From positions 4,184 to 68,183 of IMG/VR virus record IMGVR_UViG_3300022562_000870: 64,000 bases of DNA; one strand, 5' to 3'. This DNA is from a virus. Its lineage: Duplodnaviria > Heunggongvirae > Uroviricota > Caudoviricetes. How positions within the stretch are numbered: position 1 is the stretch's first letter; each line of letters begins with the position of its first letter. Below the pieces are notes generated by a model. The model was given only the letters and a program-made list of their open reading frames with translations, had not been told where the DNA came from and made no database searches. The translations under genes and the position numbers were made by a program. Positions 6,219-62,888 of the stretch are shown here, one piece after another.

Positions 6219-6344
6219 TAGTTTAACGGGTAAAACATCCGGGCGAGGGCAGCTGTGGTTCGATTCCACTTAACAACGGTTACGTAAGTCCGCACTGGAA
6301 GAAGATTGGTTCGATGCCAACCAGACGACACTTTATGCTTTGGT
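6219..6344 (+). tRNA. two tRNA-like elements (T-loops at about 6268 and about 6319); cloverleaf not resolved by hand
   Basis: GGTTCGATTCC and GGTTCGATGCC T-loop motifs. Acceptor pairing could not be established manually. Confidence 0.35.
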
Positions 6345-10622: not shown

Positions 10623-11440
10623 TGGATAATCTTTGCGGATTTGAAATCGGAGGCGATAAGCCATTTTTTCTTATTGCTGGGCCTTGTGTTATTGAAGGCG
10701 AATATATCACCATGGAAACCGCAGAAAAGTTAAAAGAAATTACTGATAAACTTAATATTGGATTCATATTTAAATCTTCTTTCGATAAAGCTAACAGAAC
10801 TTCTATAAGGGGGTTTCGTGGATTAGGTATGGAAGCAGGATTGAAAATATTAGAAAAGGTTCGTAACGAATTCAATGTACCAATATTAACAGATGTCCAT
10901 GAAGATACGCCCATTGATGAAGTAGCAAGTGTAGTTAATGTTTTACAAACGCCTGCTTTTCTTGCAAGACAAACGAATTTTATAACTCGTGTTGCAGCAA
11001 CAGGTAAACCTGTTAACATCAAGAAAGCGCAATTTATGGCACCGTGGGATATGATTAACGTTGTAGAAAAAGCCAAGTCTACTGGCAACAAACAAATCAT
11101 GGTTTGTGAACGTGGTACATCGTTTGGATATAATACGTTGGTTTCTGATATGCGCTCGTTAGTTGAATTGCGCAAAACCGGATGCCCTGTTGTATTTGAT
11201 GCTACACATTCTGTACAGATGCCCGGTGGTCAAGGAACGTCTTCTGGTGGACAGCGCGAACACGTGCCGACGTTGGCGCGTGCGGCAGTAGCGGTCGGAG
11301 TTGATGGTTTATTCATGGAAACACATCCAACGCCAGACAAGGCTTTATCTGATGGACCAAATATGGTACCATTGCATGAAATGGAAAATCTGTTGCAAGC
11401 TTTAACGTCGATAGATTATGCAGCAAAAGCATACTTATGA
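10622..11440 (+). CDS. kdsA: 2-dehydro-3-deoxyphosphooctonate aldolase (KDO-8-phosphate synthase)
   Basis: Matches bacterial KdsA across the protein: [52 protein letters not shown]. Confidence 0.85.
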
Positions 11441-11883
11441 TTACTAATCTACAACTTGGTGCCAAGCTTTTACAGAAACGTTTAAAACCAAAAGAAAACG
11501 ATGATATGTACTACGGTGCTATAGTTCAAGAAGGACAAACTGCTGTTTGGTGTAACCTAAACAATGATTATGATTTATTAGAATCAGATATAAAACAGTT
11601 AAAACATTTAGGTTTTGTAATAGAAACTGACGGCGATATTTCCTTTTATTTTGGTGACGAAAAAGAAATTTGTACATGATATTAAAACGTATTGATGAAA
11701 TACTACGGGCAAAGCAACTAATGAAAATTTTTCAGGAGTGTGTAAACAATCCTGAAGCATATTTGATGGAAAAGAATAGACTTGGGACAGAATTTTTCGT
11801 AAATTTTTGGAAAAGTGGATTCAACGATGCTGCGAATGTTTATAATAAAACAAAATTTTGGTTTATGCGAAAAGTAAAACTTT

Positions 11884-18613: not shown

Positions 18614-19612
18614 ATGCCTATACCAGAGGATATACAAGTCCATGTACTTGATATGGAACTTAATGGTGGATGTAATTATAAGTGTAAAATGTGTCCCCAA
18701 TCAGTCAGCCGTGAAAAAGAATTTCTTAAAAAACTGCCGCTTGATGTATTTGAAAAAGTAATAGATGATGCTATGCAATATGGTTTAAAAACTGTTACAT
18801 TGCATGGAAGTGGCGAACCTACACTCAACAAAGATATGCCAGATTTTGTTCGTGCTGTAAAAAAACGCGGATTAACTTGTATTAGTTTTACAAATGGATT
18901 AAAACTTACCGAAAAACTTTCTAAAGAACTTATCGATGCAGGGATCGATATTCTTCGCCTCTCATGTATTGGATACGATAAAGAAACTTATGAAGAATGG
19001 ATGGAACGCGGAGATTATGATTTAGTTCGCGAAAATGCAAAACGTTTTGTTGAACTAGCTAAGGGCAAAAATACCGAAATGCATATTAATCATCTCATTA
19101 TTGATAAAGATAACATAGATTATGAAATAGCCATGTATCGTAAAAATTGGGGTGAATATACTGGTGCACGTTCTGAAATGTGGTTGATGCATAATTGGAG
19201 TCATAGTGATAAGGTTGAATTAAAATATCTACGTGAAGAATTCTTAAATAAGAAAAAACTTCGTACATGTGGTAGACCATTTGCGCCATTGCTCCAAGTT
19301 AGGGCTGGTGGTTTAGATGGACATAAAGCAGCTGTAGTAGCCTGTTGTATGGTATTAGGTAAAGATAGTCAAGGCGTACTTGGTCATCTTGATACAGATT
19401 CTATCGCTGATGTTGTTAATGGTGAATTATATACGGAATTGCGCAAGGCACATGAAGAAAAGCGGTTTGATGATATATCTTATTGTAAGGGATGTGACCA
19501 ATTAATTGATACGCCAGAGGCTTTAGTGTGGTGTGATATTCCCGGCCGTGAATATGGTCAAAGCAAAAACCTTGCTACACTTAATTTTTTAAATTATTCT
19601 AAGGATAAGTAA
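18614..19612 (+). CDS. radical SAM enzyme
   Basis: CNYKCKMCP is the CxxxCxxC cluster. Additional C-terminal cysteines are consistent with an auxiliary cluster. Confidence 0.65.
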   Translation: MPIPEDIQVHVLDMELNGGCNYKCKMCPQSVSREKEFLKKLPLDVFEKVIDDAMQYGLKTVTLHGSGEPTLNKDMPDFVRAVKKRGLTCISFTNGLKLTEKLSKELIDAGIDILRLSCIGYDKETYEEWMERGDYDLVRENAKRFVELAKGKNTEMHINHLIIDKDNIDYEIAMYRKNWGEYTGARSEMWLMHNWSHSDKVELKYLREEFLNKKKLRTCGRPFAPLLQVRAGGLDGHKAAVVACCMVLGKDSQGVLGHLDTDSIADVVNGELYTELRKAHEEKRFDDISYCKGCDQLIDTPEALVWCDIPGREYGQSKNLATLNFLNYSKDK

Positions 19613-28954: not shown

Positions 28955-29803
28955 ATGTCGATTATAAAACATGGTGATTGTCTTGATGTTTTAAAAGAAT
29001 ATCCAGACGATTATTTTGATTTGATATTAACATCACCACCATACGCCGATGCACGCGTAAAAACTTATGGTGGCGTTCCCCCAGATGAATATGTAGAATG
29101 GTTCCTACCACGCTCTGAAGAATTTTTGCGCGTATTAAAACCCACAGGAACTTTTATTCTTAATATTAAAGAAAAGACGGTCAATTCAGAACGAAGCACC
29201 TATGTTATAGAACTAATTCTTGAACTACGCAAACAAGGATGGTTATGGACAGAAGAGTTTATCTGGCATAAAACAACAGCATTTCCTGGAAAATGGCCAA
29301 ACAGATTTCGAGATGCATGGGAAAGATGTTTACAGTTTAATAAAAATAAAAAATTTAAAATGAATCAAGAAGCTGTAATGGTGCCAATCGGTGATTGGGC
29401 AACAAAAACTTCAAGACTTACATCTTTAACAAAAAACGATAAAGTACGCCATGATTCTTCAACCAATAGTGGTTTTAGTAAAAAAACCGCCAATTGGGTT
29501 AATAGGGATATGGTATATCCAACCAATGTTTTACATTTAGCACCAGAAACTGGAAATCGTAAACATAGCGCAGTATTTCCTAAGAAAATACCAGAATGGT
29601 TTATTAAATTATTTACCGATGAAGGTGATATGGTATTAGACCCATTTGTTGGTTCTGGAACTACATGTCACGTAGCAGATGAACTTAACCGTGAATCTGT
29701 TGGTATAGATATTCTTGAAGAAAATATAGAATTAGCTGACAATAAAATGAAAAATTGTGATCTCTTAACATTTGACATAGAAGAAAAAGAAAATGAAAAT
29801 TGA
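28955..29803 (+). CDS. DNA methyltransferase (N6-adenine or N4-cytosine, beta-class)
   Basis: TSPPYAD (motif IV) precedes DPFVGSGTT (motif I). Confidence 0.75.
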   Translation: MSIIKHGDCLDVLKEYPDDYFDLILTSPPYADARVKTYGGVPPDEYVEWFLPRSEEFLRVLKPTGTFILNIKEKTVNSERSTYVIELILELRKQGWLWTEEFIWHKTTAFPGKWPNRFRDAWERCLQFNKNKKFKMNQEAVMVPIGDWATKTSRLTSLTKNDKVRHDSSTNSGFSKKTANWVNRDMVYPTNVLHLAPETGNRKHSAVFPKKIPEWFIKLFTDEGDMVLDPFVGSGTTCHVADELNRESVGIDILEENIELADNKMKNCDLLTFDIEEKENEN

Positions 29804-30641
29804 TAAAAAACGAGTTGACTTGCGGTTGCAAGAATTCAGAATGAATAGAATAGCAGCAATTGAAAAATTTAATATTGAAGAAAAATTAGCAAGGGTAGAT
29901 ATGAGTTTATACAGAATCAACGGTATACTTACTATAAAAGACTTTGCTAAAAAAATGGTAAAAGACTGGTACGCAAGGAATACAGAAACAGAACATGGAC
30001 ATGTTATGGAACATATTGCAACATTGACAGTGGAAGAAAATTTTAAAGTTTTGGATGTTCCACAAAGTGAAAAATGTAGTTTTGATATTTTATTCACCGT
30101 AGAAGATAGTAATGGTCGAACAATGTTAACTGGCTTACAAGTTAAAGCAGGTGAAAATAGTCAAAATTGTCAAAACATGGATGGATATAAGGGTGATGTT
30201 ATTAAATTTAACAAAAAATATAAACACGAATATGATAATGTAATGTGCATAAAAGGATCTTGTCGCGGTACTTCTAACGGGTTCATATTAGTAGACGGTA
30301 TACCTAAACATTTAAGTATAAAGTTGGCTGGACAGGAATTCTGGAAGAAAATAAGTGGTGGCAGTGATGACTTCTTTGAAAAAGTGTATGGTCTTGTAGA
30401 TTATTTTTTCGCAGAACATGAAGAAGTAATCGACGAAAAGTTAAATGAATTAATTTCTAATGTTTGTAACTATTTAAGTGCTAACTGCTCAAACGATGGT
30501 GTACATATAGATCCATTAAAAGTTTTATCATACACATCAGTTAGTAAATTACCCAACCCCGCACTATTAGATAATGCGCTTGCGGCTATTGAAAACCCCG
30601 ACGCATTTTATGAAAGAGAAAGTCTTATTTCATATGAATAA
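29793..30641 (+). CDS. hypothetical protein between two methyltransferases (nuclease or anti-restriction function possible)
   Basis: Position only. Weak D...E.K spacing (FDILFTVED...LQVK). Confidence 0.35.
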   Translation: MKIDKKRVDLRLQEFRMNRIAAIEKFNIEEKLARVDMSLYRINGILTIKDFAKKMVKDWYARNTETEHGHVMEHIATLTVEENFKVLDVPQSEKCSFDILFTVEDSNGRTMLTGLQVKAGENSQNCQNMDGYKGDVIKFNKKYKHEYDNVMCIKGSCRGTSNGFILVDGIPKHLSIKLAGQEFWKKISGGSDDFFEKVYGLVDYFFAEHEEVIDEKLNELISNVCNYLSANCSNDGVHIDPLKVLSYTSVSKLPNPALLDNALAAIENPDAFYERESLISYE

Positions 30642-31212
30642 ACCCACCATACAAGATTTTATAGATATCGACGACCTTCCACCAAACGAAGAACAAATGA
30701 TGAAGGCGGCTGGTTTCACACATGATAGTGTGGACAATCAGTCTGTAGATTGGTATACACCTAAATGGATATTTGATGAATTAGATATAAAATTTGATCT
30801 CGATCCTTGTCATCCAAAACAAAGAATTCCATGGATTCCCGTAGAAAAGCATTATAGTTTAGAAGATGATGGATTAAAATCACCATGGTTTGGAAACGTT
30901 TGGTTAAATCCTCCATATGGTAAGGAAACTAGTATATGGTTAGAAAAGATGCATAACCATCGTAATGGTATAGCATTAGTTTTTGCCAGAACGGATTGTC
31001 AATGGTATCACAATTATGTTACACGGGCAGATGGATTACTTTTTCTTAAAGGTAGAATTAGGTTCGTAGATGGTCTTGGTGTTACAAAGGGTGGTGGTGC
31101 TGGCAGTGGATCTATGCTCATATCATGGGGTGAAGCTAATACTAATAGGTTAAAACAAATATCCGACCGGGGTCATTTTATACCCCTTGACGAATTGAAA
31201 AAAATAAGGTAA
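30634..31212 (+). CDS. DNA N6-adenine methyltransferase, phage Dam-like
   Basis: DWYTPKWIF and NPPYG motifs. The start was refined to ATG at 30634, overlapping the upstream stop. Confidence 0.65.
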   Translation: MNKPTIQDFIDIDDLPPNEEQMMKAAGFTHDSVDNQSVDWYTPKWIFDELDIKFDLDPCHPKQRIPWIPVEKHYSLEDDGLKSPWFGNVWLNPPYGKETSIWLEKMHNHRNGIALVFARTDCQWYHNYVTRADGLLFLKGRIRFVDGLGVTKGGGAGSGSMLISWGEANTNRLKQISDRGHFIPLDELKKIR

Positions 31213-43062: not shown

Positions 43063-43274
43063 TGATTTAATTTAACGCCGAAAGGCAAAATACAAAAGGT
43101 TGGAATATGATTTCAATAGCAAGACAACAATGGCAAATACAACAGCCCGGTTTATGTGGGATGGGTTCATTGCGCCTAGGCTCTTTTAGTCATGATCCAC
43201 GTTATGAACGCGCACAGCCTTTTGCAGGGGGATCTACCGAAACAATGTAAGTAGAAACCAAAAAAGAAATCGCA

Positions 43275-43403: not shown

Positions 43404-43432
43404 TTGACACCTTATCAAAGACATGTTATAAT
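43404..43432 (+). promoter_or_regulatory. sigma70-like promoter (TTGACA-17-TATAAT) facing the tRNA array
   Basis: Consensus -35 and -10 with a 17-nt spacer, about 250 nt upstream of the first tRNA of the array. Confidence 0.55.
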
Positions 43433-43685
43433 ATTGGAATGGCGCGAAAAGCGTCGTAGATTTAAAGAAATGCAGAAGTAGTTAGCGGAACGCTTAGTGA
43501 CTAACCACTTTAAAGAAATACGGGTAGTAGAATGTTGATCAGGTTGAAATTCCTGTCCGAACACCTACTACGGAACTTACCTACCAGTAGCGATGGGATG
43601 GTACCAGCCACGCGATTAGAACCGTAAAATCGGTCACGCTGAAAGATAGGAAACGGTATAATATCGTTTAAAAAGTGTATATTAG

Positions 43686-43771
43686 CTGCGTGTAGCCGGG
43701 TAACTTGGTAGCCCCCCTCGCTTGGAACGAGGTGTCGAAAGACCTTGCTGGTTCGAATCCAGTTGCGCAGA
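43686..43771 (+). tRNA. tRNA, atypical type-II-like; anticodon loop CTTGGAA (UGG, Pro?); CCA encoded
   Basis: Acceptor CTGCGTG/TGCGCAG. Anticodon stem CCTCG/CGAGG. Long variable hairpin GTCGAAAGAC. T-arm GCTGG-TTCGAAT-CCAGT. D-arm not resolved. Confidence 0.45.
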
Positions 43772-43787
43772 CCAATATACATTTAAA

Positions 43788-43870
43788 TGGGAAGTAGGAA
43801 AATTGGCAACCCCACCTGACTTTGAATCAGGCGTCGAAAGACATTGTGCGTTCGAGTCGCACCTTCCCAG
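43788..43870 (+). tRNA. tRNA, atypical type-II-like; anticodon loop CTTTGAA (UUG, Gln?); CCA encoded
   Basis: Acceptor TGGGAAG/CTTCCCA. Anticodon stem CCTGA/TCAGG. Variable hairpin GTCGAAAGAC. T-arm GTGCG-TTCGAGT-CGCAC. Confidence 0.45.
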
Positions 43871-43884
43871 CCAATTAAAAATAT

Positions 43885-44057: not shown

Positions 44058-44111
44058 CCAAATTTTGTCTGACCTAACACATCGATCACTGTTAGGATTT
44101 ACACAAGTAGT

Positions 44112-44183
44112 AACCATGTGATGTACTTGGAAGCATGGCCCCCTCTAAAGGGGTTTGTATAGGTTCGAATCCTATTGTGGTAA
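44112..44183 (+). tRNA. suppressor-type tRNA with anticodon CUA (reads UAG); no CCA encoded
   Basis: - U8 present.
- D-stem ATGT/GCAT with loop ACTTGGAA.
- Anticodon stem GCCCC/GGGGT with loop CTCTAAA.
- 4-nt variable loop.
- T-arm ATAGG-TTCGAAT-CCTAT.
- Acceptor AACCATG/TGTGGTA with an A1/A72 mismatch. Confidence 0.6.
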
Positions 44184-44246
44184 AAAATGTATTAGTTGGT
44201 ATTCATTCGCGATGAAAAATCCAACCGACAAAATTCAAATTCTATG

Positions 44247-44323
44247 GATTTCTCCCTTGGAAGGCGGCTGACCTGTGCGGTCGGTAATACTAGTTTAGAA
44301 GGGTTCAATTCCCTTGGAAATCC
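44247..44323 (+). tRNA. tRNA-like element with a non-canonical core (no anticodon arm found); CCA encoded
   Basis: Perfect acceptor GATTTCT/GGAAATC and T-arm AAGGG-TTCAATT-CCCTT. The middle forms CTGACC-TGTGC-GGTCGG, a hairpin with a 5-nt loop. Confidence 0.35.
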
Positions 44324-44334
44324 CCAAATAATAT

Positions 44335-44415
44335 ACAGTGGTATGCAAATGGTTAAAGCAGCTGGGCCTTCAACCCAGTCCGTAAGGTTTGCGAGTTCGA
44401 ATCTCGTCCGCTGTA
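44335..44415 (+). tRNA. type II tRNA with ambiguous anticodon loop CCTTCAA (UUC or UCA); CCA encoded
   Basis: Acceptor ACAGTGG/CCGCTGT. 3-bp D-stem. Anticodon stem (G)CTGGG/CCCAG(T), resembling the selC GCTGGA-CTTCAAA-TCCAGT arm. Variable hairpin CCGTAAGG. Confidence 0.45.
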
Positions 44416-44468
44416 CCAACTTTCAACCATACATTGACATTGAAATCACAGTGTGATATAATAATTGC

Positions 44469-44924
44469 ATGAAATTATGTGGAAAATGTGGAAAAACAAA
44501 ACCGCTAACTGAATTTACCTTTAAAAAAGGTAAACATAAACCACAATCATATTGTAAGGACTGTAACCGCGAATATCAACGTGAACATTATCATAGGAAT
44601 AAAGAAAAATATTTTGATGATCGTAAACAGCGAAGAAAAGATAGTAAGGAAAAGGCGATTAAACTCCTTCTTGAATATGTTAAGGATGGATGTGTTGATT
44701 GTGGTGAAAAAGATTTCGAAGTTTTAGATTTTGACCATATTGAACAGAGCAATAAAGAATATACCATATCTTATATGATAAACAATGGTTTTGGTGTTGA
44801 AAAAATCAAAAACGAACTTGAAAAATGTCGAGTATTGTGTAGTAACTGTCATCGTCGAAGAACGGCGAAGCAATTAGGATGGTATTCAGAATATTTACAT
44901 TTACTTGAAACTACATCGCTGTAG
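44469..44924 (+). CDS. HNH endonuclease-like zinc-ribbon protein
   Basis: CGKCGK...CKDC, then VDCGEKDFEVLDFDHIEQ and CSNCHRRRT. Its 3' end overlaps the start of a tRNA. Confidence 0.5.
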   Translation: MKLCGKCGKTKPLTEFTFKKGKHKPQSYCKDCNREYQREHYHRNKEKYFDDRKQRRKDSKEKAIKLLLEYVKDGCVDCGEKDFEVLDFDHIEQSNKEYTISYMINNGFGVEKIKNELEKCRVLCSNCHRRRTAKQLGWYSEYLHLLETTSL

Positions 44925-44989
44925 TTTAACTGGAATAGAACGCAAGCCTTTCAAGCTTGAAAATGCGGGTTCGAGTCCCGTCAGCGATA
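44915..44989 (+). tRNA. tRNA-Glu (UUC); CCA encoded
   Basis: Acceptor ATCGCTG/CAGCGAT. D-stem GTTT/GAAC. Anticodon stem CAAGC/GCTTG with loop CTTTCAA. T-arm GCGGG-TTCGAGT-CCCGT. Confidence 0.65.
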
Positions 44990-45007
44990 CCAATAATGGA
45001 AGTGAAC

Positions 45008-45442
45008 ATGAAAAAAGTTAAAACTGCGATAAGTGAAATACAACGCCATGAAGAAATAAGTCTTTTTGGGTTTTTTGATAAACACCTTTTTGGTAATGGG
45101 TATTATTTTGAGTTCGTACGAGAAGAAATAGAAGGAAGGGCCGATAGAAAAATATTCATATTTTGGTGGTGGTGGGGCAGGAATCGCGGGGTTAAAACAA
45201 CTATTCTTGATTGGCTTGACCCGTTTTCAATAAACATAAGAAGAAATATCACCGAATCTGTTAAAAAGATACGGCTGAAATTTGAAAATAGTGGAATGAA
45301 TCATGATGAACAACGGTACTGGTCAAAAATTCTTTTACACGCGTATCATGACGCGCAAAACTTTTTGTTCGGTTGGTCATTATTTTTAAAAATAAGTTAT
45401 GGTTCTATAGCTTTATCAACTTTCGTATTTTCTTTCTTTTAA
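45008..45442 (+). CDS. hypothetical protein
   Basis: ATG refined to lie downstream of the tRNA. Confidence 0.35.
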   Translation: MKKVKTAISEIQRHEEISLFGFFDKHLFGNGYYFEFVREEIEGRADRKIFIFWWWWGRNRGVKTTILDWLDPFSINIRRNITESVKKIRLKFENSGMNHDEQRYWSKILLHAYHDAQNFLFGWSLFLKISYGSIALSTFVFSFF

Positions 45443-45462
45443 TAAGAATTCAACAAAATCTA

Positions 45463-45547
45463 TTGCGCGGTATACAAATGGTTAACGTGATGGGCCTCAT
45501 AAGCCTATGCTGAAAAGCTTTGCGGCGTTCGAATCCCGCCTGCGCTA
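45463..45547 (+). tRNA. tRNA-like, type-II-like; anticodon loop CTCATAA (CAU); boundaries approximate
   Basis: Anticodon stem TGGGC/GCCTA. Variable hairpin GCTGAAAAGC. 3' end CTGCGCT-A-CCA. The T-stem and 5' acceptor strand are imperfect. Confidence 0.35.
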
Positions 45548-45566
45548 CCAATTAAAGGTGAACATC

Positions 45567-45767
45567 ATGAGAAGATGTAAACAATGTAATAAAAGTATTG
45601 AACATAAGCATAAGAATGCTAAGTTCTGTAAACAAAAATGTAAAGATAAATATCATAACGTGAATAATCCACGTGGATATTTTGCACACTTGGCTGGTGA
45701 AAGTAACAACTTGCACGACTATGAAGATGCACATATCTTCAGTAGTGAAGCGTTGGGTCAAGAATGA
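45567..45767 (+). CDS. small zinc-ribbon protein
   Basis: RBS AAAGGTG upstream. CKQCNK...CKQKCKDKYH. Confidence 0.4.
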   Translation: MRRCKQCNKSIEHKHKNAKFCKQKCKDKYHNVNNPRGYFAHLAGESNNLHDYEDAHIFSSEALGQE

Positions 45768-45773
45768 AATAAT

Positions 45774-45846
45774 GCGGGTATAGTGTTTAACGGCAGCATA
45801 ATGTCCTTCCAAGTCAAAGGTGGGGGTTCGAATCCCCCTATCCGCT
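45774..45846 (+). tRNA. tRNA-like element (73 nt) without a resolvable D or anticodon stem; CCA encoded
   Basis: Acceptor GCGGGTA/TATCCGC and T-arm GGGGG-TTCGAAT-CCCCC are perfect. An exhaustive manual search found no anticodon stem of 5 bp with a 7-nt loop. Confidence 0.35.
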
Positions 45847-45947
45847 CCAAAATTTGTAGTCCAGTGCTATGCGGGAAAGAAGGTGCCTAAGCGATCATAG
45901 ACATGCACATCCTTTACTACAAATTTCTTATTATAAAATTTCTTATT

Positions 45948-46039
45948 GTGTTAGTGGCGAAATTGGCAGACGCTGCTGGTGAACCAGACGTGGGTAAACT
46001 GGCGATGACGATCTTGCAGGTTCGAGTCCTGTCTAATAT
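45948..46039 (+). tRNA. type-II-like tRNA with a Leu-like D-arm; anticodon unresolved; no CCA
   Basis: Acceptor GTGTTAG/CTAATAT. D-arm GCG-AAATTGGCAGA-CGC. T-arm GCAGG-TTCGAGT-CCTGT. The central 45 nt contain a 4-nt-loop hairpin. Confidence 0.35.
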
Positions 46040-46111
46040 GATAAGTTTTGGCAGTGGGGCAGATTGAATATGCGGCTGATTGTCTATCAGCATTAAGAGG
46101 GTTTGATTCCC
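46040..46111 (+). tRNA. tRNA, anticodon loop TTGTCTA (GUC, Asp?); CCA encoded
   Basis: Acceptor GGCAGTG/CACTGTC. Anticodon stem GCTGA/TCAGC. T-arm GAGGG-TTTGATT-CCCTT. D-stem poor. Confidence 0.45.
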
Positions 46112-46119
46112 TTCACTGT

Positions 46120-46187
46120 CGCCAAATATACTATTGTAGTTTAACAAAAATACCTGGAGTAGTCTGGGAGATGTGGGTGAAAATCCT
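46120..46187 (+). tRNA. tRNA-like element with an atypical T-loop (TGAAAAT) and unresolved anticodon; CCA encoded
   Basis: Perfect acceptor ACTATTG/CAATAGT. T-stem GTGGG/CCTGC formed with G-U pairs. Confidence 0.3.
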
Positions 46188-46382
46188 GCCAATAGTTCCA
46201 AATCAAATTAATCAACTAAGCACGCAAGTGTAGAACCACTAATCATCGTACCTCGCTCATACCTTGGGAAAATTAGTTGGTCTACCAAAGGCCAAGAGAA
46301 GGCAATTGGTTGTGGAGTCGAAGCCCATAGTTGATTTAACGGGGCGCAGGGCAGTAGTGTCCGTAAGTCGCAACGAATTCTA

Positions 46383-46456
46383 TGGTGACTGTAGCTTAAT
46401 TGGTAAAGCTCCAGACTGTGAATCTGAAAGATGGGGGTTCAAGTCCCCTCAGTCAC
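46383..46456 (+). tRNA. tRNA-His (GUG) with G-1; CCA encoded
   Basis: G-1 opposite C73. Acceptor GTGACTG/CAGTCAC. D-stem GCTT/AAGC. Anticodon loop CTGTGAA. T-arm GGGGG-TTCAAGT-CCCCT. Confidence 0.7.
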
Positions 46457-46465
46457 CCCAAATAA

Positions 46466-46543
46466 TGGAACCTTAGCTGAGTGGGAAATGGCCTAGCGTC
46501 TGGTTGAAGCCCAGAAGACATCCGTTCGAATCGGATAGGTTCT
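46466..46543 (+). tRNA. tRNA-Phe (GAA), 78 nt with an extended D region; CCA encoded
   Basis: Acceptor GGAACCT/AGGTTCT. Anticodon stem TCTGG/CCAGA with loop TTGAAGC. T-arm ATCCG-TTCGAAT-CGGAT. Confidence 0.55.
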
Positions 46544-46551
46544 ACCAATTA

Positions 46552-46624
46552 TGGAACTCTGGTGTAGTAGGTCTGCACACTTGTCTGAAGAACAGGGGGT
46601 CACGGTTCGAATCCGTGGGGTTCC
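46552..46624 (+). tRNA. tRNA with anticodon GAA (second Phe-type); CCA encoded
   Basis: Acceptor GGAACTC/GGGTTCC. D-stem GTGT/GCAC. Anticodon stem CTTGT/ACAGG with loop CTGAAGA. T-arm CACGG-TTCGAAT-CCGTG. Confidence 0.55.
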
Positions 46625-46639
46625 ACCAAAAAGAATAAT

Positions 46640-49187: not shown

Positions 49188-49269
49188 TTGCAAGTGTGTG
49201 GCGGTGGCATCTCCATGGGATGCAGTAGGGGTCGCTCCCCCACCATAGGTTCGAGTCCTATGCTTGCAA
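49188..49269 (+). tRNA. tRNA-like, type-II-like with a short D region; anticodon loop TCCATGG (CAU?); CCA encoded
   Basis: Acceptor TGCAAGT/GCTTGCA. Stem GCATC/GATGC. Variable hairpin GGGG-TCGCT-CCCC. T-arm ATAGG-TTCGAGT-CCTAT. Confidence 0.4.
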
Positions 49270-49278
49270 CCAAATATT

Positions 49279-50128: not shown

Positions 50129-50704
50129 ATGATTAGTTACGGTTTGCTTGCAGAAGCATTGGAATATTATCAAGACCAAGGTTATGAACTGGTTGACGTT
50201 CCTTGGACTGTTTCCAAACAATCGATGAATATAACCGCAGGCAAAAGCATCGATTTAGAAAAAAATAAATACATAGACGACTACTTGGTTGGAAGCGCAG
50301 AGCAATCTTTCTTGCACATGATCCGAGGAGGTGAACTTTCCGAAGGAAGATACTGCGCTATAACCCCGTGTTTTAGAAGCAACGATCCTGAAGATGAACT
50401 TCATCAGAAATATTTTATGAAAGTTGAACTTATTTCATACAATAAAAAATGGTGGCAATGGGTATCGGATATGGAATTATTAATCTATGATGCGCGACAG
50501 TTCTTCGAACAATGGGTTCCTACGACAGTAGTTAAAACGAAGGATGAACGTAGCGATGAAAGTTATGATATTGAATGTAATGGAATTGAATTAGGTTCAT
50601 ATGGTATTAGACACTTCGAAAATATTGATTGGGTTTATGGTACAGGATTGGCCGAACCTAGATTTTCAAATGTATTGAATAGAGAATTTTATGCCAACAG
50701 TTAA
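50129..50704 (+). CDS. minimal class II aminoacyl-tRNA synthetase core, SerRS-like (amino acid:carrier-protein ligase-like)
   Basis: - ITPCFRSNDPEDELHQKYFMKVE matches SerRS motif 2 (TPCFRSEA...HQFDKVE).
- YELVDVPW is motif-1-like.
- C-terminal IELGSYGIR...YGTGLAEPR is motif-3-like.
- Only 191 aa, with no N-terminal tRNA-binding arm. Confidence 0.55.
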   Translation: MISYGLLAEALEYYQDQGYELVDVPWTVSKQSMNITAGKSIDLEKNKYIDDYLVGSAEQSFLHMIRGGELSEGRYCAITPCFRSNDPEDELHQKYFMKVELISYNKKWWQWVSDMELLIYDARQFFEQWVPTTVVKTKDERSDESYDIECNGIELGSYGIRHFENIDWVYGTGLAEPRFSNVLNREFYANS

Positions 50705-53752: not shown

Positions 53753-53803
53753 AATAGACTATACTAACGGGTAGGTGTTAACCATCTACCCGTTTTTATT
53801 ATG

Positions 53804-53883
53804 CCTCGGTGACTAATGTAAATCGGCACAGCTACTGCGCTTAAAACGCAGGTTTTTGTGGGTTCGAATCCCACCCGGGGTAC
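53804..53883 (+). tRNA. tRNA-Leu (UAA); CCA encoded
   Basis: Acceptor GCCTCGG/CCGGGGT. Anticodon stem CTGCG/CGCAG with loop CTTAAAA. T-arm GTGGG-TTCGAAT-CCCAC. Confidence 0.6.
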
Positions 53884-53892
53884 CAAATAATG

Positions 53893-53972
53893 CGTCGGTG
53901 GTTAATGTAAATCGGTACAGCTACAAGGCTCAAACCCTTGACTTTTGTGGGTTCGAATCCCACCCGGCGTAC
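53893..53972 (+). tRNA. tRNA-Leu (CAA); CCA encoded
   Basis: Paralogous to the 53804 tRNA. Anticodon stem CAAGG/CCTTG with loop CTCAAAC. Confidence 0.6.
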
Positions 53973-54270
53973 CAAATTTAAAGGTGAATTATGTTATTGC
54001 ATTTTGTATTAGATTCTGGTAAAATTGTTACATTGGGTACTTTGTTACCCGTTAGTAAGGATATTTTAAATCTATATGTTAAAAAATATCCGCGACACTG
54101 GATAACAGTATGACAACACCAGAAGAAGTAGATAAGCTACAAGAATTGGCTAAAGAGACTCTTATAGAAATGATTGAAAATAAGAATCATTTTATTACAC
54201 ACGTAAGATACAACTGGCTTGATGGTGATAAAACAAGTGTTACTTTCGAATATATTGATAAGGAATAACT

Positions 54271-54792: not shown

Positions 54793-54946
54793 CCAAATTC
54801 GGACATTGCATCGCGAATTGGGTTCGATTCCCAACGTTGAGGTAGGTTAACAATCTTATTATCAGTAAGCCGATGGATGTCCCGTTTTCAATGCCAGATG
54901 ATCCGCGTGTGTATCCACGTGCTGGCTCCAAACAATGCCTCGGTGA

Positions 54947-55015
54947 CTAATGTAAATCGGCACAGCTACCTGCCTTAGAAGCAGGGTTTTTGCGGGTTCG
55001 AATCCCGCCCGGGGT
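54947..55015 (+). tRNA. tRNA-Leu (UAG); CCA encoded
   Basis: Same scaffold as the 53804 tRNA. Anticodon stem CCTGC/GCAGG with loop CTTAGAA. Confidence 0.6.
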
Positions 55016-55038
55016 ACCAATTTAACATAAATAATATC

Positions 55039-55437
55039 ATGAAAAATACACTTTTAGAAGCGTTCATCAATGATGTTAGAATAGAAGCGGTGAAGTTTAG
55101 ACTTCAGACTTCCAATGTTCTCGAAGATGTTCAATATAATGACATTCTCGGAAATTTTGAAAACAATAAACAGGATAGTGCTACCGTTGCCACAATCCTT
55201 GGAAAAGCATTAAATGATTTAAAAGCTTTAAATTCTTCTGGTTATGTTCGCTTATTAGCAAGATTGGTTAAAAAATGGAATGAAACGCGAATAATCATCC
55301 AATATGAAGGTTATGGATGGGATGAAGAATCCTATAAGCGAAGAAGCGAAGCTTATTCATATGTTCTTTTATTGCGGATACTTAAGAAAAAACATAAAGA
55401 CTTGTATTCCTTTATTAAACCCCTAATAAATACATAA
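55039..55437 (+). CDS. hypothetical protein
   Basis: ORF with no recognised family. Confidence 0.35.
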   Translation: MKNTLLEAFINDVRIEAVKFRLQTSNVLEDVQYNDILGNFENNKQDSATVATILGKALNDLKALNSSGYVRLLARLVKKWNETRIIIQYEGYGWDEESYKRRSEAYSYVLLLRILKKKHKDLYSFIKPLINT

Positions 55438-55454
55438 TACATCTGGAGAAACAT

Positions 55455-55907
55455 ATGAAAGTTGGTGAAATATTTGAAGGTAATTATGATGATGCATCAT
55501 ATGATGCAAGCAACGAAGCTGCACAAGAATACTTCAATGAAAAGTATATTTCACTTCCAGCTGTTATGTCTTTAAGATTAGAAGAAATTGCAGACTATGC
55601 GCATAAGGCTAATCTTAGTAATGAAGCCGAATTCTTAAATAAGTTTGTTGATATGAATGATGATGATTTCTACGTTCCGAGAGATGTTGGCAAACATATA
55701 GATCAGTTGGATACTATGATTGGTAACGAAGATCCAAACATAGTGGACGCTATTGAACAGCTTGTTGCATTATTATCAAGTAATATGACAACAGAAGAAG
55801 AATGGATGAATTCAAAAGAAGCACATTCGGTTGCTGATGAAGCACGTGCGGAATATGAACCTGATGAACATAACCGTTACGGTATAAAACCAAGCGATTT
55901 TTATTAA
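55455..55907 (+). CDS. hypothetical acidic protein
   Basis: RBS GGAGAAACAT upstream. Confidence 0.4.
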   Translation: MKVGEIFEGNYDDASYDASNEAAQEYFNEKYISLPAVMSLRLEEIADYAHKANLSNEAEFLNKFVDMNDDDFYVPRDVGKHIDQLDTMIGNEDPNIVDAIEQLVALLSSNMTTEEEWMNSKEAHSVADEARAEYEPDEHNRYGIKPSDFY

Positions 55908-62784: not shown

Positions 62785-62888
62785 GCCGCTGCTGAATAAG
62801 ATCAACAAAGGTCGTGGCGAATTCAGCCCTGTTGAATGGGTGTCACCGCTGGCTTCGGTGATTGCGGGTTCGAATCCTGTCGGCGGCA
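62785..62888 (+). tRNA. tRNA-like 3' module with a long non-canonical body (about 104 nt); no CCA
   Basis: Acceptor GCCGCTG/CGGCGGC and T-arm GCGGG-TTCGAAT-CCTGT. The body contains the hairpin ATTCAG-CCCTG-TTGAAT and no standard anticodon arm. Confidence 0.3.

Follow-up and report, generated by a model that had tools for sequence, protein, structure and literature searches.

The subject of this analysis is a tRNA gene array in 64,000 nucleotides (nt) of DNA from a tailed phage (part of IMG/VR record IMGVR_UViG_3300022562_000870; hereafter the window), which is AT-rich with 36% guanine plus cytosine (GC) and has every gene on one strand. ARAGORN reports 28 tRNA genes in these 64 kb and Rfam 25, and we count at least 36 tRNA-shaped genes. 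Four elements, E1 to E4 (Table 1), had been singled out in an earlier note as tRNA-shaped RNAs without an anticodon arm of 5 base pairs (bp) and a 7-nt loop. In our best reading, they form neither one class nor a separate class of mimics, and all of them belong to the tRNA gene family of the phage. E1, E3, and E4, together with the elements F1 (49189), E6 (45464), and E5 (45948), are best read as lineage-specific remodelled tRNA paralogues. In these paralogues, the acceptor/T-arm half is intact and the D/anticodon half is altered.

The tRNA array and its irregular members

The window was scanned for modules composed of a 7-bp acceptor stem, the 3' strand of which directly follows a 5-bp/7-nt T arm and is itself followed by any discriminator plus CCA. 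The plus strand holds 32 matches compared to a mean of 0.03 in 30 Markov-1 shuffles, so that chance is excluded and the modules are non-random; the 3.3-kb core region has 15 sites with 0.02 expected. E1, E2, and E3 (44247, 45774, and 46130 in the scan) are among the matches, and the acceptor stem is complete (7/7 pairs) in all four flagged elements. The modules stand in tandem with tRNAs, separated by spacers of 5–9 nt and sharing an identical CCA-AAU trailer. The first tRNA sub-array, i.e., the one with E1, has promoter-like sites on its flanks (Table 1). One of them lies upstream, and the consensus scan found no terminator-like site between this putative promoter and E1. An HNH homing endonuclease gene sits inside this first sub-array of the tRNA region, and the window also encodes RNA ligases of the Rnl1 and Rnl2 types and a Gp23-like protein.

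ARAGORN at default settings and the whole-window Rfam scan at the RF00005 gathering threshold of 29 bits both miss the genes at 44247, 46130, 49189, 53803, and 54937, and likewise those at 45464 (with a weak T stem), 45948, and 62785 (both with stems and no CCA). Because standard finders thus overlook at least eight tRNA-shaped genes in the window, three of which are clearly functional-looking Leu tRNAs, the tRNA inventories of large phages are under-counted and sometimes mis-assigned.

Table 1. Positions of the tRNA-shaped elements, their parts, and associated features (window coordinates unless another contig is named).
Feature	Position	Strand	Description	Basis
E1	44246..44326	+	Irregular tRNA-His-type gene	Acceptor/T-arm scan, minimum-free-energy (MFE) cloverleaf, ARAGORN relaxed
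E1 G-1	44246		Pairs with discriminator C73 at 44323	
E1 acceptor	44247-44253 / 44316-44322			
E1 D-like hairpin	44255-44264		CCU-UGGA-AGG	
E1 anticodon-type hairpin	44267-44285		GUG at 44275-44277	
E1 variable region	44285/6-44298		Unpaired, 13-14 nt	
E1 T arm	44299-44315		Loop UUCAAUU	
E1 3' end	44323; 44324-44326		Discriminator C; CCA	
E2	45774..45849	+	Ordinary tRNA-Gly(UCC), encoded CCA	ARAGORN default; Rfam RF00005, 50.2 bits
E3	46130..46200	+	tRNA-family gene, 6-nt anticodon loop	Rfam slice scan, ARAGORN relaxed
E3 acceptor	46130-36 / 46190-96			
E3 D arm			Stem GUUU/AAAU; loop AACAA, without GG	
E3 anticodon-position stem	46153-57 / 46164-68		CCUGG/CUGGG	
E3 anticodon-position loop	46158-63		AGUAGU	
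E3 T arm	46173-89		Loop UGAAAAU	
E3 3' end	CCA 46198-46200		Discriminator U, then CCA	
E4	62785..62888	+	104-nt tRNA-shaped intergenic element	Sequence, scan, MFE fold
E4 acceptor			GCCGCUG/CGGCGGC (GC-rich)	
E4 3' end			Discriminator A, then CTA (no CCA)	
E4 T arm			GCGGG-UUCGAAU-CCUGU; canonical T loop	
E5	45948..46040	+	93-nt tRNA-like element	Scan, ARAGORN relaxed, fold
E6	45464..45550	+	Type-II-shaped tRNA, CAU anticodon, CCA	Rfam 29.6 bits (3.3-kb scan); ARAGORN at 95% of threshold
F1	49189..49272	+	Irregular tRNA-like gene with CCA	Scan, fold
T-arm-like remnant	44195..44226	+	Eroded, GUUGG...UGAAAAAU CCAAC, between tRNA(CUA) and E1	Read from sequence
Canonical tRNA-His(GUG)	46384..46460	+	G-1:C73	ARAGORN, Rfam 68.7 bits
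Promoter-like site	43404..43432	+	12/12 match to sigma-70 consensus plus TG	Consensus scan
Second promoter-like site	44434-44462		12/12 match	Consensus scan
tRNA-Leu UAA, CAA, UAG	53803-53885, 53892-53974, 54937-55019		Homologue at L002 18132-18214	
tRNAs with extra variable-arm hairpin	Pro UGG 43686-43774; Gln UUG 43788-43873; Glu UUC 44335-44418; CAU 45464-45550		GNRA tetraloop, class-I anticodons	
tRNA-Asp variant	46050-46124; L002 12745; L009 315 (oriented); also in L022, L028, L031, L033, L038, L040		U37	

Anatomy of the four flagged elements

The MFE fold of E1 is a cloverleaf with an 8-bp acceptor helix that includes G44246:C44323, a canonical T loop, and a variable region that forms at most 3 bp. 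Its D position holds a hairpin of 3–4 bp with a tetraloop, the GG lies inside these 4 nt, and U8 is missing. The central hairpin, previously described as 6 bp with a 5-nt loop, was confirmed as a 6–7 bp stem around UGUGC in the MFE fold; a 5-bp stem with the 7-nt loop CUGUGCG (U33, GUG, C37, G38) becomes available if C32:G38 opens. ARAGORN recognises E1, as an 80-nt His(GTG), only once the threshold is set to 92% of the default value or below, and Rfam scores it at 18.5 bits to tRNA-Sec at best with no match to RF00005. E1 carries the bacterial tRNA-His identity set, i.e., an encoded G-1 paired to C73 and GUG, a signature that is otherwise confined to canonical tRNA-His genes in the loci that we compared.

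One such canonical gene lies downstream in the same array (Table 1) and renders E1 redundant for decoding. We rejected the idea that E1 is a recent duplicate of it because their likeness is limited to generic positions in the alignment; compared to this gene (His-46385), 10 of 17 stem pairs differ on both sides and all still form. The exact 3' half of E1 has no match in IMG/VR, and no homologue of the element was found in GenBank phages. The design of E1, a His identity set combined with a D hairpin that ends in a tetraloop and a variable region of 14 nt, appears to be undescribed and is free of homologues in the collections searched.

E3 had been placed at 46120-46187, yet 46120-46124 still belong to the tRNA-Asp before it and form its CCA terminus; the real element begins and ends further downstream (Table 1). 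It scores 31.7 bits to RF00005 when a slice of 87 nt is scanned alone and is missed in larger Rfam scans because of their speed filters, and ARAGORN returns it only at 82% of threshold or below, with the 6-nt loop AGUAGU. No register gives a 5-bp/7-nt anticodon arm, as the loop comprises 6 nt or, in the MFE fold, 4 nt. The elbow contact has lost both of its partners, i.e., there is no G18G19 in the D loop and the T loop UGAAAAU is of a non-TPsiC kind. The T arm, taken to be perfect in the earlier note, contains two G.U pairs. Overall, four of the 17 pairs in the acceptor, T, and anticodon stems and one of four D-stem pairs are G.U (ca. 24%), whereas in canonical tRNAs G.U makes up 8.7% of these 17 pairs, and GC stands at 38% versus 52% in 19 canonical tRNAs. 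E3 therefore looks relaxed, with GC drift and G.U pairs. Its nearest paralogue is the Thr(GGU) gene at 6337 (alignment z = 7.2), and in this comparison of 21 stem pairs eight have changed on both sides, four on one side, and none has been lost.

E4 is enlarged by 52 nt of additional hairpins. Its MFE fold has three internal hairpins, one of which is a 13-bp arm with a triloop, and no recognisable D arm. A 5-bp/7-nt hairpin (CACCG CUGGCUU CGGUG, with U37) is present 3 nt before the T arm and separated from the acceptor strand by 52 nt, which is an abnormal position. All Rfam covariance models stay at or below 14.5 bits (mascRNA 14.5, tRNA 12.3), and ARAGORN finds only a partial fold of 68 nt at no more than 84% of threshold. 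The intron models of ARAGORN, which make E4 a tRNA-Asn with a 13-nt "intron", are not credible in a phage or bacterial gene and were discarded. No relatives of the open reading frame (ORF) upstream of E4 were found.

E2, for which the earlier note had found no anticodon arm within 45774-45846, is a standard tRNA-Gly by both ARAGORN at default settings and Rfam. The arm had been missed because five perfect pairs were demanded: the loop CUUCCAA (U33, UCC, A37) is a normal one of 7 nt, and three of the five stem pairs form next to the non-Watson-Crick oppositions A27.A43 and U30.U40. E2 also has U8 and the G18G19 of the D arm that forms the elbow with the T loop. It is homologous to an annotated tRNA-Gly of Vibrio phage 6E35.1a, and A27.A43 is common to both. 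Directly after this gene, an 11-bp long-range stem (AAAUUUGUAGU/ACUACAAAUUU) encloses ca. 55 nt at 45849-45926; its z-score is unremarkable.

The picture from which we started thus survives in part. The acceptor stem, discriminator, T-like arm, and encoded CCA were recovered by the scan for E1, E2, and E3, and the CCA is replaced by CTA in E4. An in-register 5-bp/7-nt anticodon arm is missing in E3; E2 has a normal loop on a stem with three of five pairs, E1 can form an arm in the alternative register, and E4 has the misplaced hairpin. Standard software produces a normal cloverleaf with an ordinary anticodon for E2, borderline results for E1 and E3, and no such fold for E4. Of the explanations that the note itself had offered, faulty manual folding applies to E2 and partly to E3, which passes the RF00005 score when scanned alone, and very unusual cores apply to E1 and E4, which fail the covariance models, and to the 6-nt loop of E3. 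For decoys or aminoacylation substrates, the support is indirect and consists of the HisRS identity set retained by E1 and of a published precedent in which HisRS charges irregular G-1 tRNAs that take no part in translation (PMC5389517).

Turnover, constraint, and competing readings

The window has no DNA-level match among GenBank phages; individual proteins share ca. 49% identity with proteins from 126-kb Vibrio phages or ca. 45% with proteins from Caulobacter/Brevundimonas jumbo phages. Relatives were sought with a pattern from a conserved non-coding RNA (ncRNA) next to E3, which returned only a 363-kb contig from IMG/VR and, from a metagenome collection, the same contig plus one of 1.4 kb, the remaining 15 matches being chance. 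The former (363.5 kb; L002, L004, L007) is the nearest syntenic relative with ca. 45% protein identity and the latter (L009) the second one; a further contig (L001), recovered through exact protein matches, is identical to window positions 44129-46634 and contributes no variation. No relatives were found via the upstream Gp23-like protein (related-locus search and tblastn), and when the region and the individual elements were compared to GenBank phages by megablast and distant blastn, nothing but generic T arms matched. L002 retains the gene order Pro-Pro-Gln-Tyr-...-Glu-Glu-Asp-ncRNA-His and L009 the shorter run Tyr-Glu-Asp-ncRNA-His.

No homologue of E1 or E3 was found at the orthologous sites of L002 and L009, and both contigs hold irregular elements of their own. 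L002 has X1 (11655-11735; Arg-type loop CUACGAA with ACG, an 8-nt T loop, no CCA) and, at the position of E1, X3 with a CAU-containing loop and CCA and without a D arm; X2, a tRNA-like of 114 nt, is another irregular element of the relatives. In L002, a tRNA-like gene of 132 nt at 18831-18965 (28.4 bits in Rfam) combines an acceptor stem, A73-CCA, and a D arm with ca. 60 nt of extra arms and a small GUG-containing loop at the anticodon-loop position; the window has no counterpart of this gene at the matching site (55437-55455). L009 holds a mini element of 65 nt with acceptor plus CCA. In the window, the eroded remnant next to E1 resembles the T arm of X1, with weak alignment scoring. Because the relatives hold different irregular elements and the window this remnant, the first sub-array is a birth-and-death hotspot for tRNA derivatives.

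The other remodelled genes of the window are similarly diverse. F1, 6 nt upstream of a canonical tRNA-Pro, combines an 11-nt D region, the hairpin GCAUC-UCCAUGG-GAUGC, and a 21-nt variable arm, and is missed by ARAGORN at default settings and by Rfam (14.6 bits to tRNA-Sec at best as a slice). E6 has the variable arm GCU-GAAA-AGC, an imperfect T stem, and a U1.U72 mismatch, and E5 has two G.U pairs in the acceptor stem, a canonical T arm, and neither CCA nor a clear anticodon arm.

No stem pair is broken among the 17–21 of E1 or E3. With the chosen paralogue taken as an approximation of the ancestor, the same number of random substitutions never preserved all pairs in 100,000 trials for E1 or E3 (P < 1e-5), and because no pair was lost despite heavy divergence, both folds would have been under selection for most of their history. 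We consider it very unlikely that the elements are silent, dead pseudogenes or chance stem-loops with neither transcript nor constraint. Such decay would explain why they are not conserved in the two relatives, why E3 has drifted, why E1 and E4 fall below covariance-model thresholds, and why E4 has no CCA; yet the 32 matches of our scan exclude chance, E1, E4, and F1 remain at 49–58% GC in a 36% GC genome, the stems are unbroken, and the elements lie inside tRNA transcription units only 5–9 nt from their neighbours.

Instead, we hold with moderate confidence that the elements are fast-turnover paralogues which are matured like tRNAs, competent at the acceptor end, poor at decoding or unable to do so, and without a demonstrated dedicated role. 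The acceptor/T-arm half of a tRNA is the part read by RNase P, by 3'-end and CCA maturation, by EF-Tu, and by acceptor-reading synthetases. Co-transcribed with neighbouring tRNAs from the sigma-70-like promoters, the elements would be excised by RNase P, with the encoded CCA as their 3' end. In the case of E1, its anatomy and the established processing of tRNA-His suggest that cleavage would leave G-1 in place as in bacterial tRNA-His. The G-1:C73 pair is the major determinant for histidyl-tRNA synthetase (HisRS) and, on a minihelix, suffices for the E. coli enzyme. For this reason, E1 would probably be histidylated by the HisRS of the host, in line with established knowledge and with PMC5389517. 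Poor or absent decoding is suggested by the loop geometries, i.e., C37 and C32:G38 in E1, the 6-nt loop of E3, and the misplaced hairpin of E4. As to their origin, the elements may derive from genes that were duplicated and recombined as the array, with its HNH homing endonuclease, turned over rapidly, with their stems held together by selection at least until recently.

Several points weigh against this reading. Our data are sequences and predicted folds, from which every mechanistic step is inferred, and the comparative set consists of two relatives at ca. 45% protein identity and one identical contig. The MFE z-scores of the elements (-0.3 to -1.3) are unremarkable and do not discriminate, as real tRNAs score alike, and the stem-preservation test depends on the paralogue standing in for the ancestor. 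E1 could be a working tRNA-His. Moreover, the lineage demonstrably keeps other non-canonical tRNA shapes under selection and, because it maintains variants of Glu, Asp, and Leu tRNAs, an odd shape alone does not imply non-decoding.

The three tRNA-Leu genes share G1.U72, A73, a D region of 25 nt, and, in place of a long arm, a variable loop of only 6 nt; ARAGORN at default settings misses two of them and mis-registers the third, and the Rfam gathering scan misses all. This family is conserved in the 363-kb relative with compensatory changes in 10 of 20 pairs, and tRNA-Leu genes of 77-78 nt also occur by annotation in Vibrio phage 6E35.1a and by gene calling in L031. Among the genes with an extra variable-arm hairpin, the type-II-shaped Glu(UUC) is conserved in L002 (12207) and L009, i.e., in all three phages, with compensatory changes. 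The insert GUCGAAAGAC is identical in the Pro and Gln tRNAs (43734 and 43833) and missing from their L002 orthologues, and the acceptor identity pairs of Pro (C1-G72, A73) and Gln (U1-A72, G73) are retained. The stem-loop GCUGA-UUGUCUA-UCAGC of the Asp variant is invariant in nine large phages (the three compared here and six further ones from IMG/VR) with otherwise different bodies, which suggests strong selection on it, and this U37 variant often adjoins a canonical tRNA-Asp. Finally, an 81-nt gene at 46467-46547, called Thr(GGU) with mismatches by ARAGORN, has a perfect 5-bp stem with the loop UUGAAGC that makes it Phe(GAA), a 25-nt D region, and a canonical tRNA-Phe (46553) directly downstream; the Thr call is probably a mis-assigned isotype.

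It is possible, although we think it unlikely, that E1 and perhaps others are functional variant decoders, i.e., that E1 works, is charged by HisRS, reads CAY codons, escapes host tRNA cleavage, and backs up the canonical copy. That the escape would run via the altered anticodon loop (C37, G38), the small D arm, and the long variable region is equally doubtful. The array indeed holds several pairs of a variant and a canonical gene, namely Pro UGG 43686 (variable-arm hairpin)/49279, Glu UUC 44335 (type-II-shaped)/44915, Asp GUC 46050 (U37)/54719, Phe GAA 46467 (25-nt D region)/46553, and His GUG E1/46385, of which the Glu variant is conserved in both relatives and Asp U37 there and in further phages. 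In E1 itself, the His identity set is complete, the T loop is canonical, and U33 and GUG are retained along with a stem of 5 bp, but its pyrimidine 37, the possible C32:G38 pair that leaves a 5-nt loop in the MFE fold, the lack of U8, and a D stem of 3–4 bp are unfavourable on a bacterial ribosome, and both relatives lack it. The Rnl1- and Rnl2-type RNA ligases fit pressure from tRNA-targeting nucleases, and evasion of such tRNases through anticodon-loop changes in phage tRNAs is a published hypothesis (PMC10264068). However, this explanation is inapplicable to E3 with its 6-nt loop and hardly applies to E4.

Dedicated mimics or decoys, i.e., non-decoding baits that titrate tRNA-targeting nucleases or tRNA-binding enzymes, or aminoacyl sinks or carriers, seem improbable to us. 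In its specific form, this proposal makes E1 and perhaps E3 and F1 selected mimics that mature like tRNAs without decoding, with E1 charged by HisRS, and serve as nuclease baits or as an aminoacyl sink or carrier, a role to which we would give little credence. With similarly low confidence, it can be extended to a lineage-wide re-shaping of tRNAs, in which those for Pro, Gln, Glu, and Met would carry an extra variable-arm hairpin, those for Leu would lack the long arm, and Asp would have U37. A retained shape with abnormal decoding loops and intact, compensated stems is what one would expect of mimics, and E3 has lost both elbow partners together; however, the elements are not conserved in the relatives, each phage has its own set, and some are plainly eroding, as seen in the remnant at 44195 and in E3 with its GC drift. 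Triplets of the G34-U35 type in E1 (GUG), E3 (GUA), and 46050 (GUC) belong to the class cut by colicin-E5-type nucleases (PMC10264068), but these are three cases, and neither a nuclease nor a defence system emerged as their partner. There are known G-1 tRNAs that receive an amino acid and yet are not used in translation (PMC5389517), and a gene for a mini class-II synthetase-like protein (50129-50704) lies in the same tRNA region; its family is, however, widespread in phages with ordinary tRNA sets, which makes the association non-specific.

Whatever their role, E1 is a natural example of a non-standard tRNA body that carries all of a synthetase identity set. If elements of this kind are charged but non-decoding, or if they resist or lure defences that cleave tRNAs, the conflict of phages and hosts over tRNAs would gain a new layer. 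If they are merely short-lived by-products, they record the speed at which phage tRNA arrays turn over.

Neighbouring features and known kinds of irregular tRNA

The ncRNA that served to find relatives is a conserved, structured RNA of ca. 185 nt at 46201-46384 between E3 (in the relatives, tRNA-Asp) and tRNA-His, with homologues at L002 12820-13008 and L009 801-988 (minus strand) and no matching family in Rfam. One compensatory change falls in its closing stem of 10 bp (UUAAUCAACU/AGUUGAUUAA) and others in a central part that is variable, while there are also conserved hairpins; of the 43 pairs predicted, 7 have changed on both sides. A second conserved non-coding stretch at 43519-43662 (L002 ca. 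11405-11545), between the first promoter-like site and the first tRNA, contains a stem compensated between the phages (GGGUAGUAG/CUACUAC versus GGUUAUAUG/CAUAUAAC) and a T-loop-like hairpin (CAGG-UUGAAAU-UCCUG), and has no Rfam match at E<=10. Further upstream, a 47-codon ORF (…LCGMGSLRLGSF…) at 43107-43250 is conserved at L002 ca. 11034-11177.

The gene at 44111-44184 is a tRNA with an amber-reading CUA anticodon (45.9 bits in Rfam), mismatches in the acceptor stem, and no encoded CCA; we rejected a link to stop-codon recoding, as TAG is an ordinary stop in 10 of 83 window ORFs. The synthetase-like protein at 50129-50704 (L002 15808-16386) is a minimal class-II aminoacyl-tRNA-synthetase-like core of 191 amino acids encoded among the tRNA genes, with motif 2 as PCFR.E and motif 3 as GTG.AEPR. 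It matches PHROG 4806 "histidyl tRNA synthetase" (E 1e-49), and its family profile fits catalytic domains of seryl-tRNA synthetase best (E 2.5e-9). The family comprises ca. 1,500 clusters in a 50% library and occurs in 278 GenBank phages under inconsistent labels, and a single-sequence AlphaFold model is uninformative with a predicted local distance difference test score (pLDDT) of 33. Outside the array, an apparent restriction-modification cluster at 28955-31212 comprises an N6/N4 DNA methylase, an EcoO109I-like type II endonuclease, and a Dam-like methylase.

Several known kinds of RNA invite comparison with the elements. The tRNA cluster of phage T4 encodes stable RNAs of unknown function, "species 1 and 2" (rnaC/rnaD), that are matured by the tRNA-processing machinery; scans of the region and of slices of E1, E3, and E4 gave no Rfam match of this type. 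Other tRNA-shaped RNAs could be dismissed as well. Transfer-messenger RNA was not found by ARAGORN -m, and mascRNA (RF01684) scores 12-17 bits with a gathering threshold of 42.5. For tRNA-Sec (RF01852; 47 bits, an 8/5 branch, a 6-bp D stem, and UCA), E1 reaches 18.5 and F1 14.6 bits, and neither has UCA.

Reduced, "bizarre" mitochondrial tRNAs can lack the D arm or elbow contacts and work with co-evolved mitochondrial factors. The short D arm of E1 and, in E3, the lack of G18G19 and T54-Psi55-C56 together with A/U-rich stems recall them, but such reduced tRNAs are not known for bacterial hosts, and a 6-nt anticodon loop is not typical of them.

The irregular tRNAs described by Mukai et al. (Nucleic Acids Res 2017, PMC5389517) also lie in tRNA clusters, some of them in phages, and have non-standard cores. 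In this group, G-1 with a pairing discriminator makes a HisRS substrate whatever the body, and E. coli HisRS charged irregular G-1 tRNAs encoded in polycistrons, with no His insertion in vivo (PMC5389517). Unlike these RNAs, which have 8/4 or 9/3 branches or a GGU anticodon and the (8/4) tRNA-His of which lacks G-1 and has A73 (PMC5389517), E1 combines a 7/5 branch with G-1:C73, GUG, a D hairpin of 3–4 bp closed by a tetraloop, and 14 nt of unstructured variable region. Allo-tRNAs are defined by a 12-bp acceptor branch split 8/4 or 9/3, a long paired variable arm, and usually G73 or U73 (PMC5389517). This identity was rejected, as the acceptor stem has 7 bp and the T stem 5 bp in each of E1, E3, and E4, and E1 has C73 and at most 3 bp in its variable region.

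According to a proposal by van den Berg et al. (eLife 2023, PMC10264068), changes in the anticodon loop let phage tRNAs evade the tRNases of the host. As in our phage, extra copies differ from the ordinary ones in the anticodon loop, and the genomes also encode RNA ligases. Those tRNAs are otherwise canonical and recognised by software (PMC10264068), whereas E1, E3, and E4 are also abnormal in the D arm, the variable region, or loop length, and E3 cannot present a 7-nt loop at all.

Lastly, tRNA pseudogenes in phage clusters resemble our elements in being lineage-specific and failed by standard detectors, and an erosion series is visible in the array (44195-44226; L002 X1 and X3). In contrast to what neutral decay predicts, E1 and E3 have no broken stem pair and an encoded CCA, and E1 has a complete identity set. 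Irregular tRNAs of phage clusters and tRNA pseudogenes were already known; the particular design of E1 appears to be undescribed.

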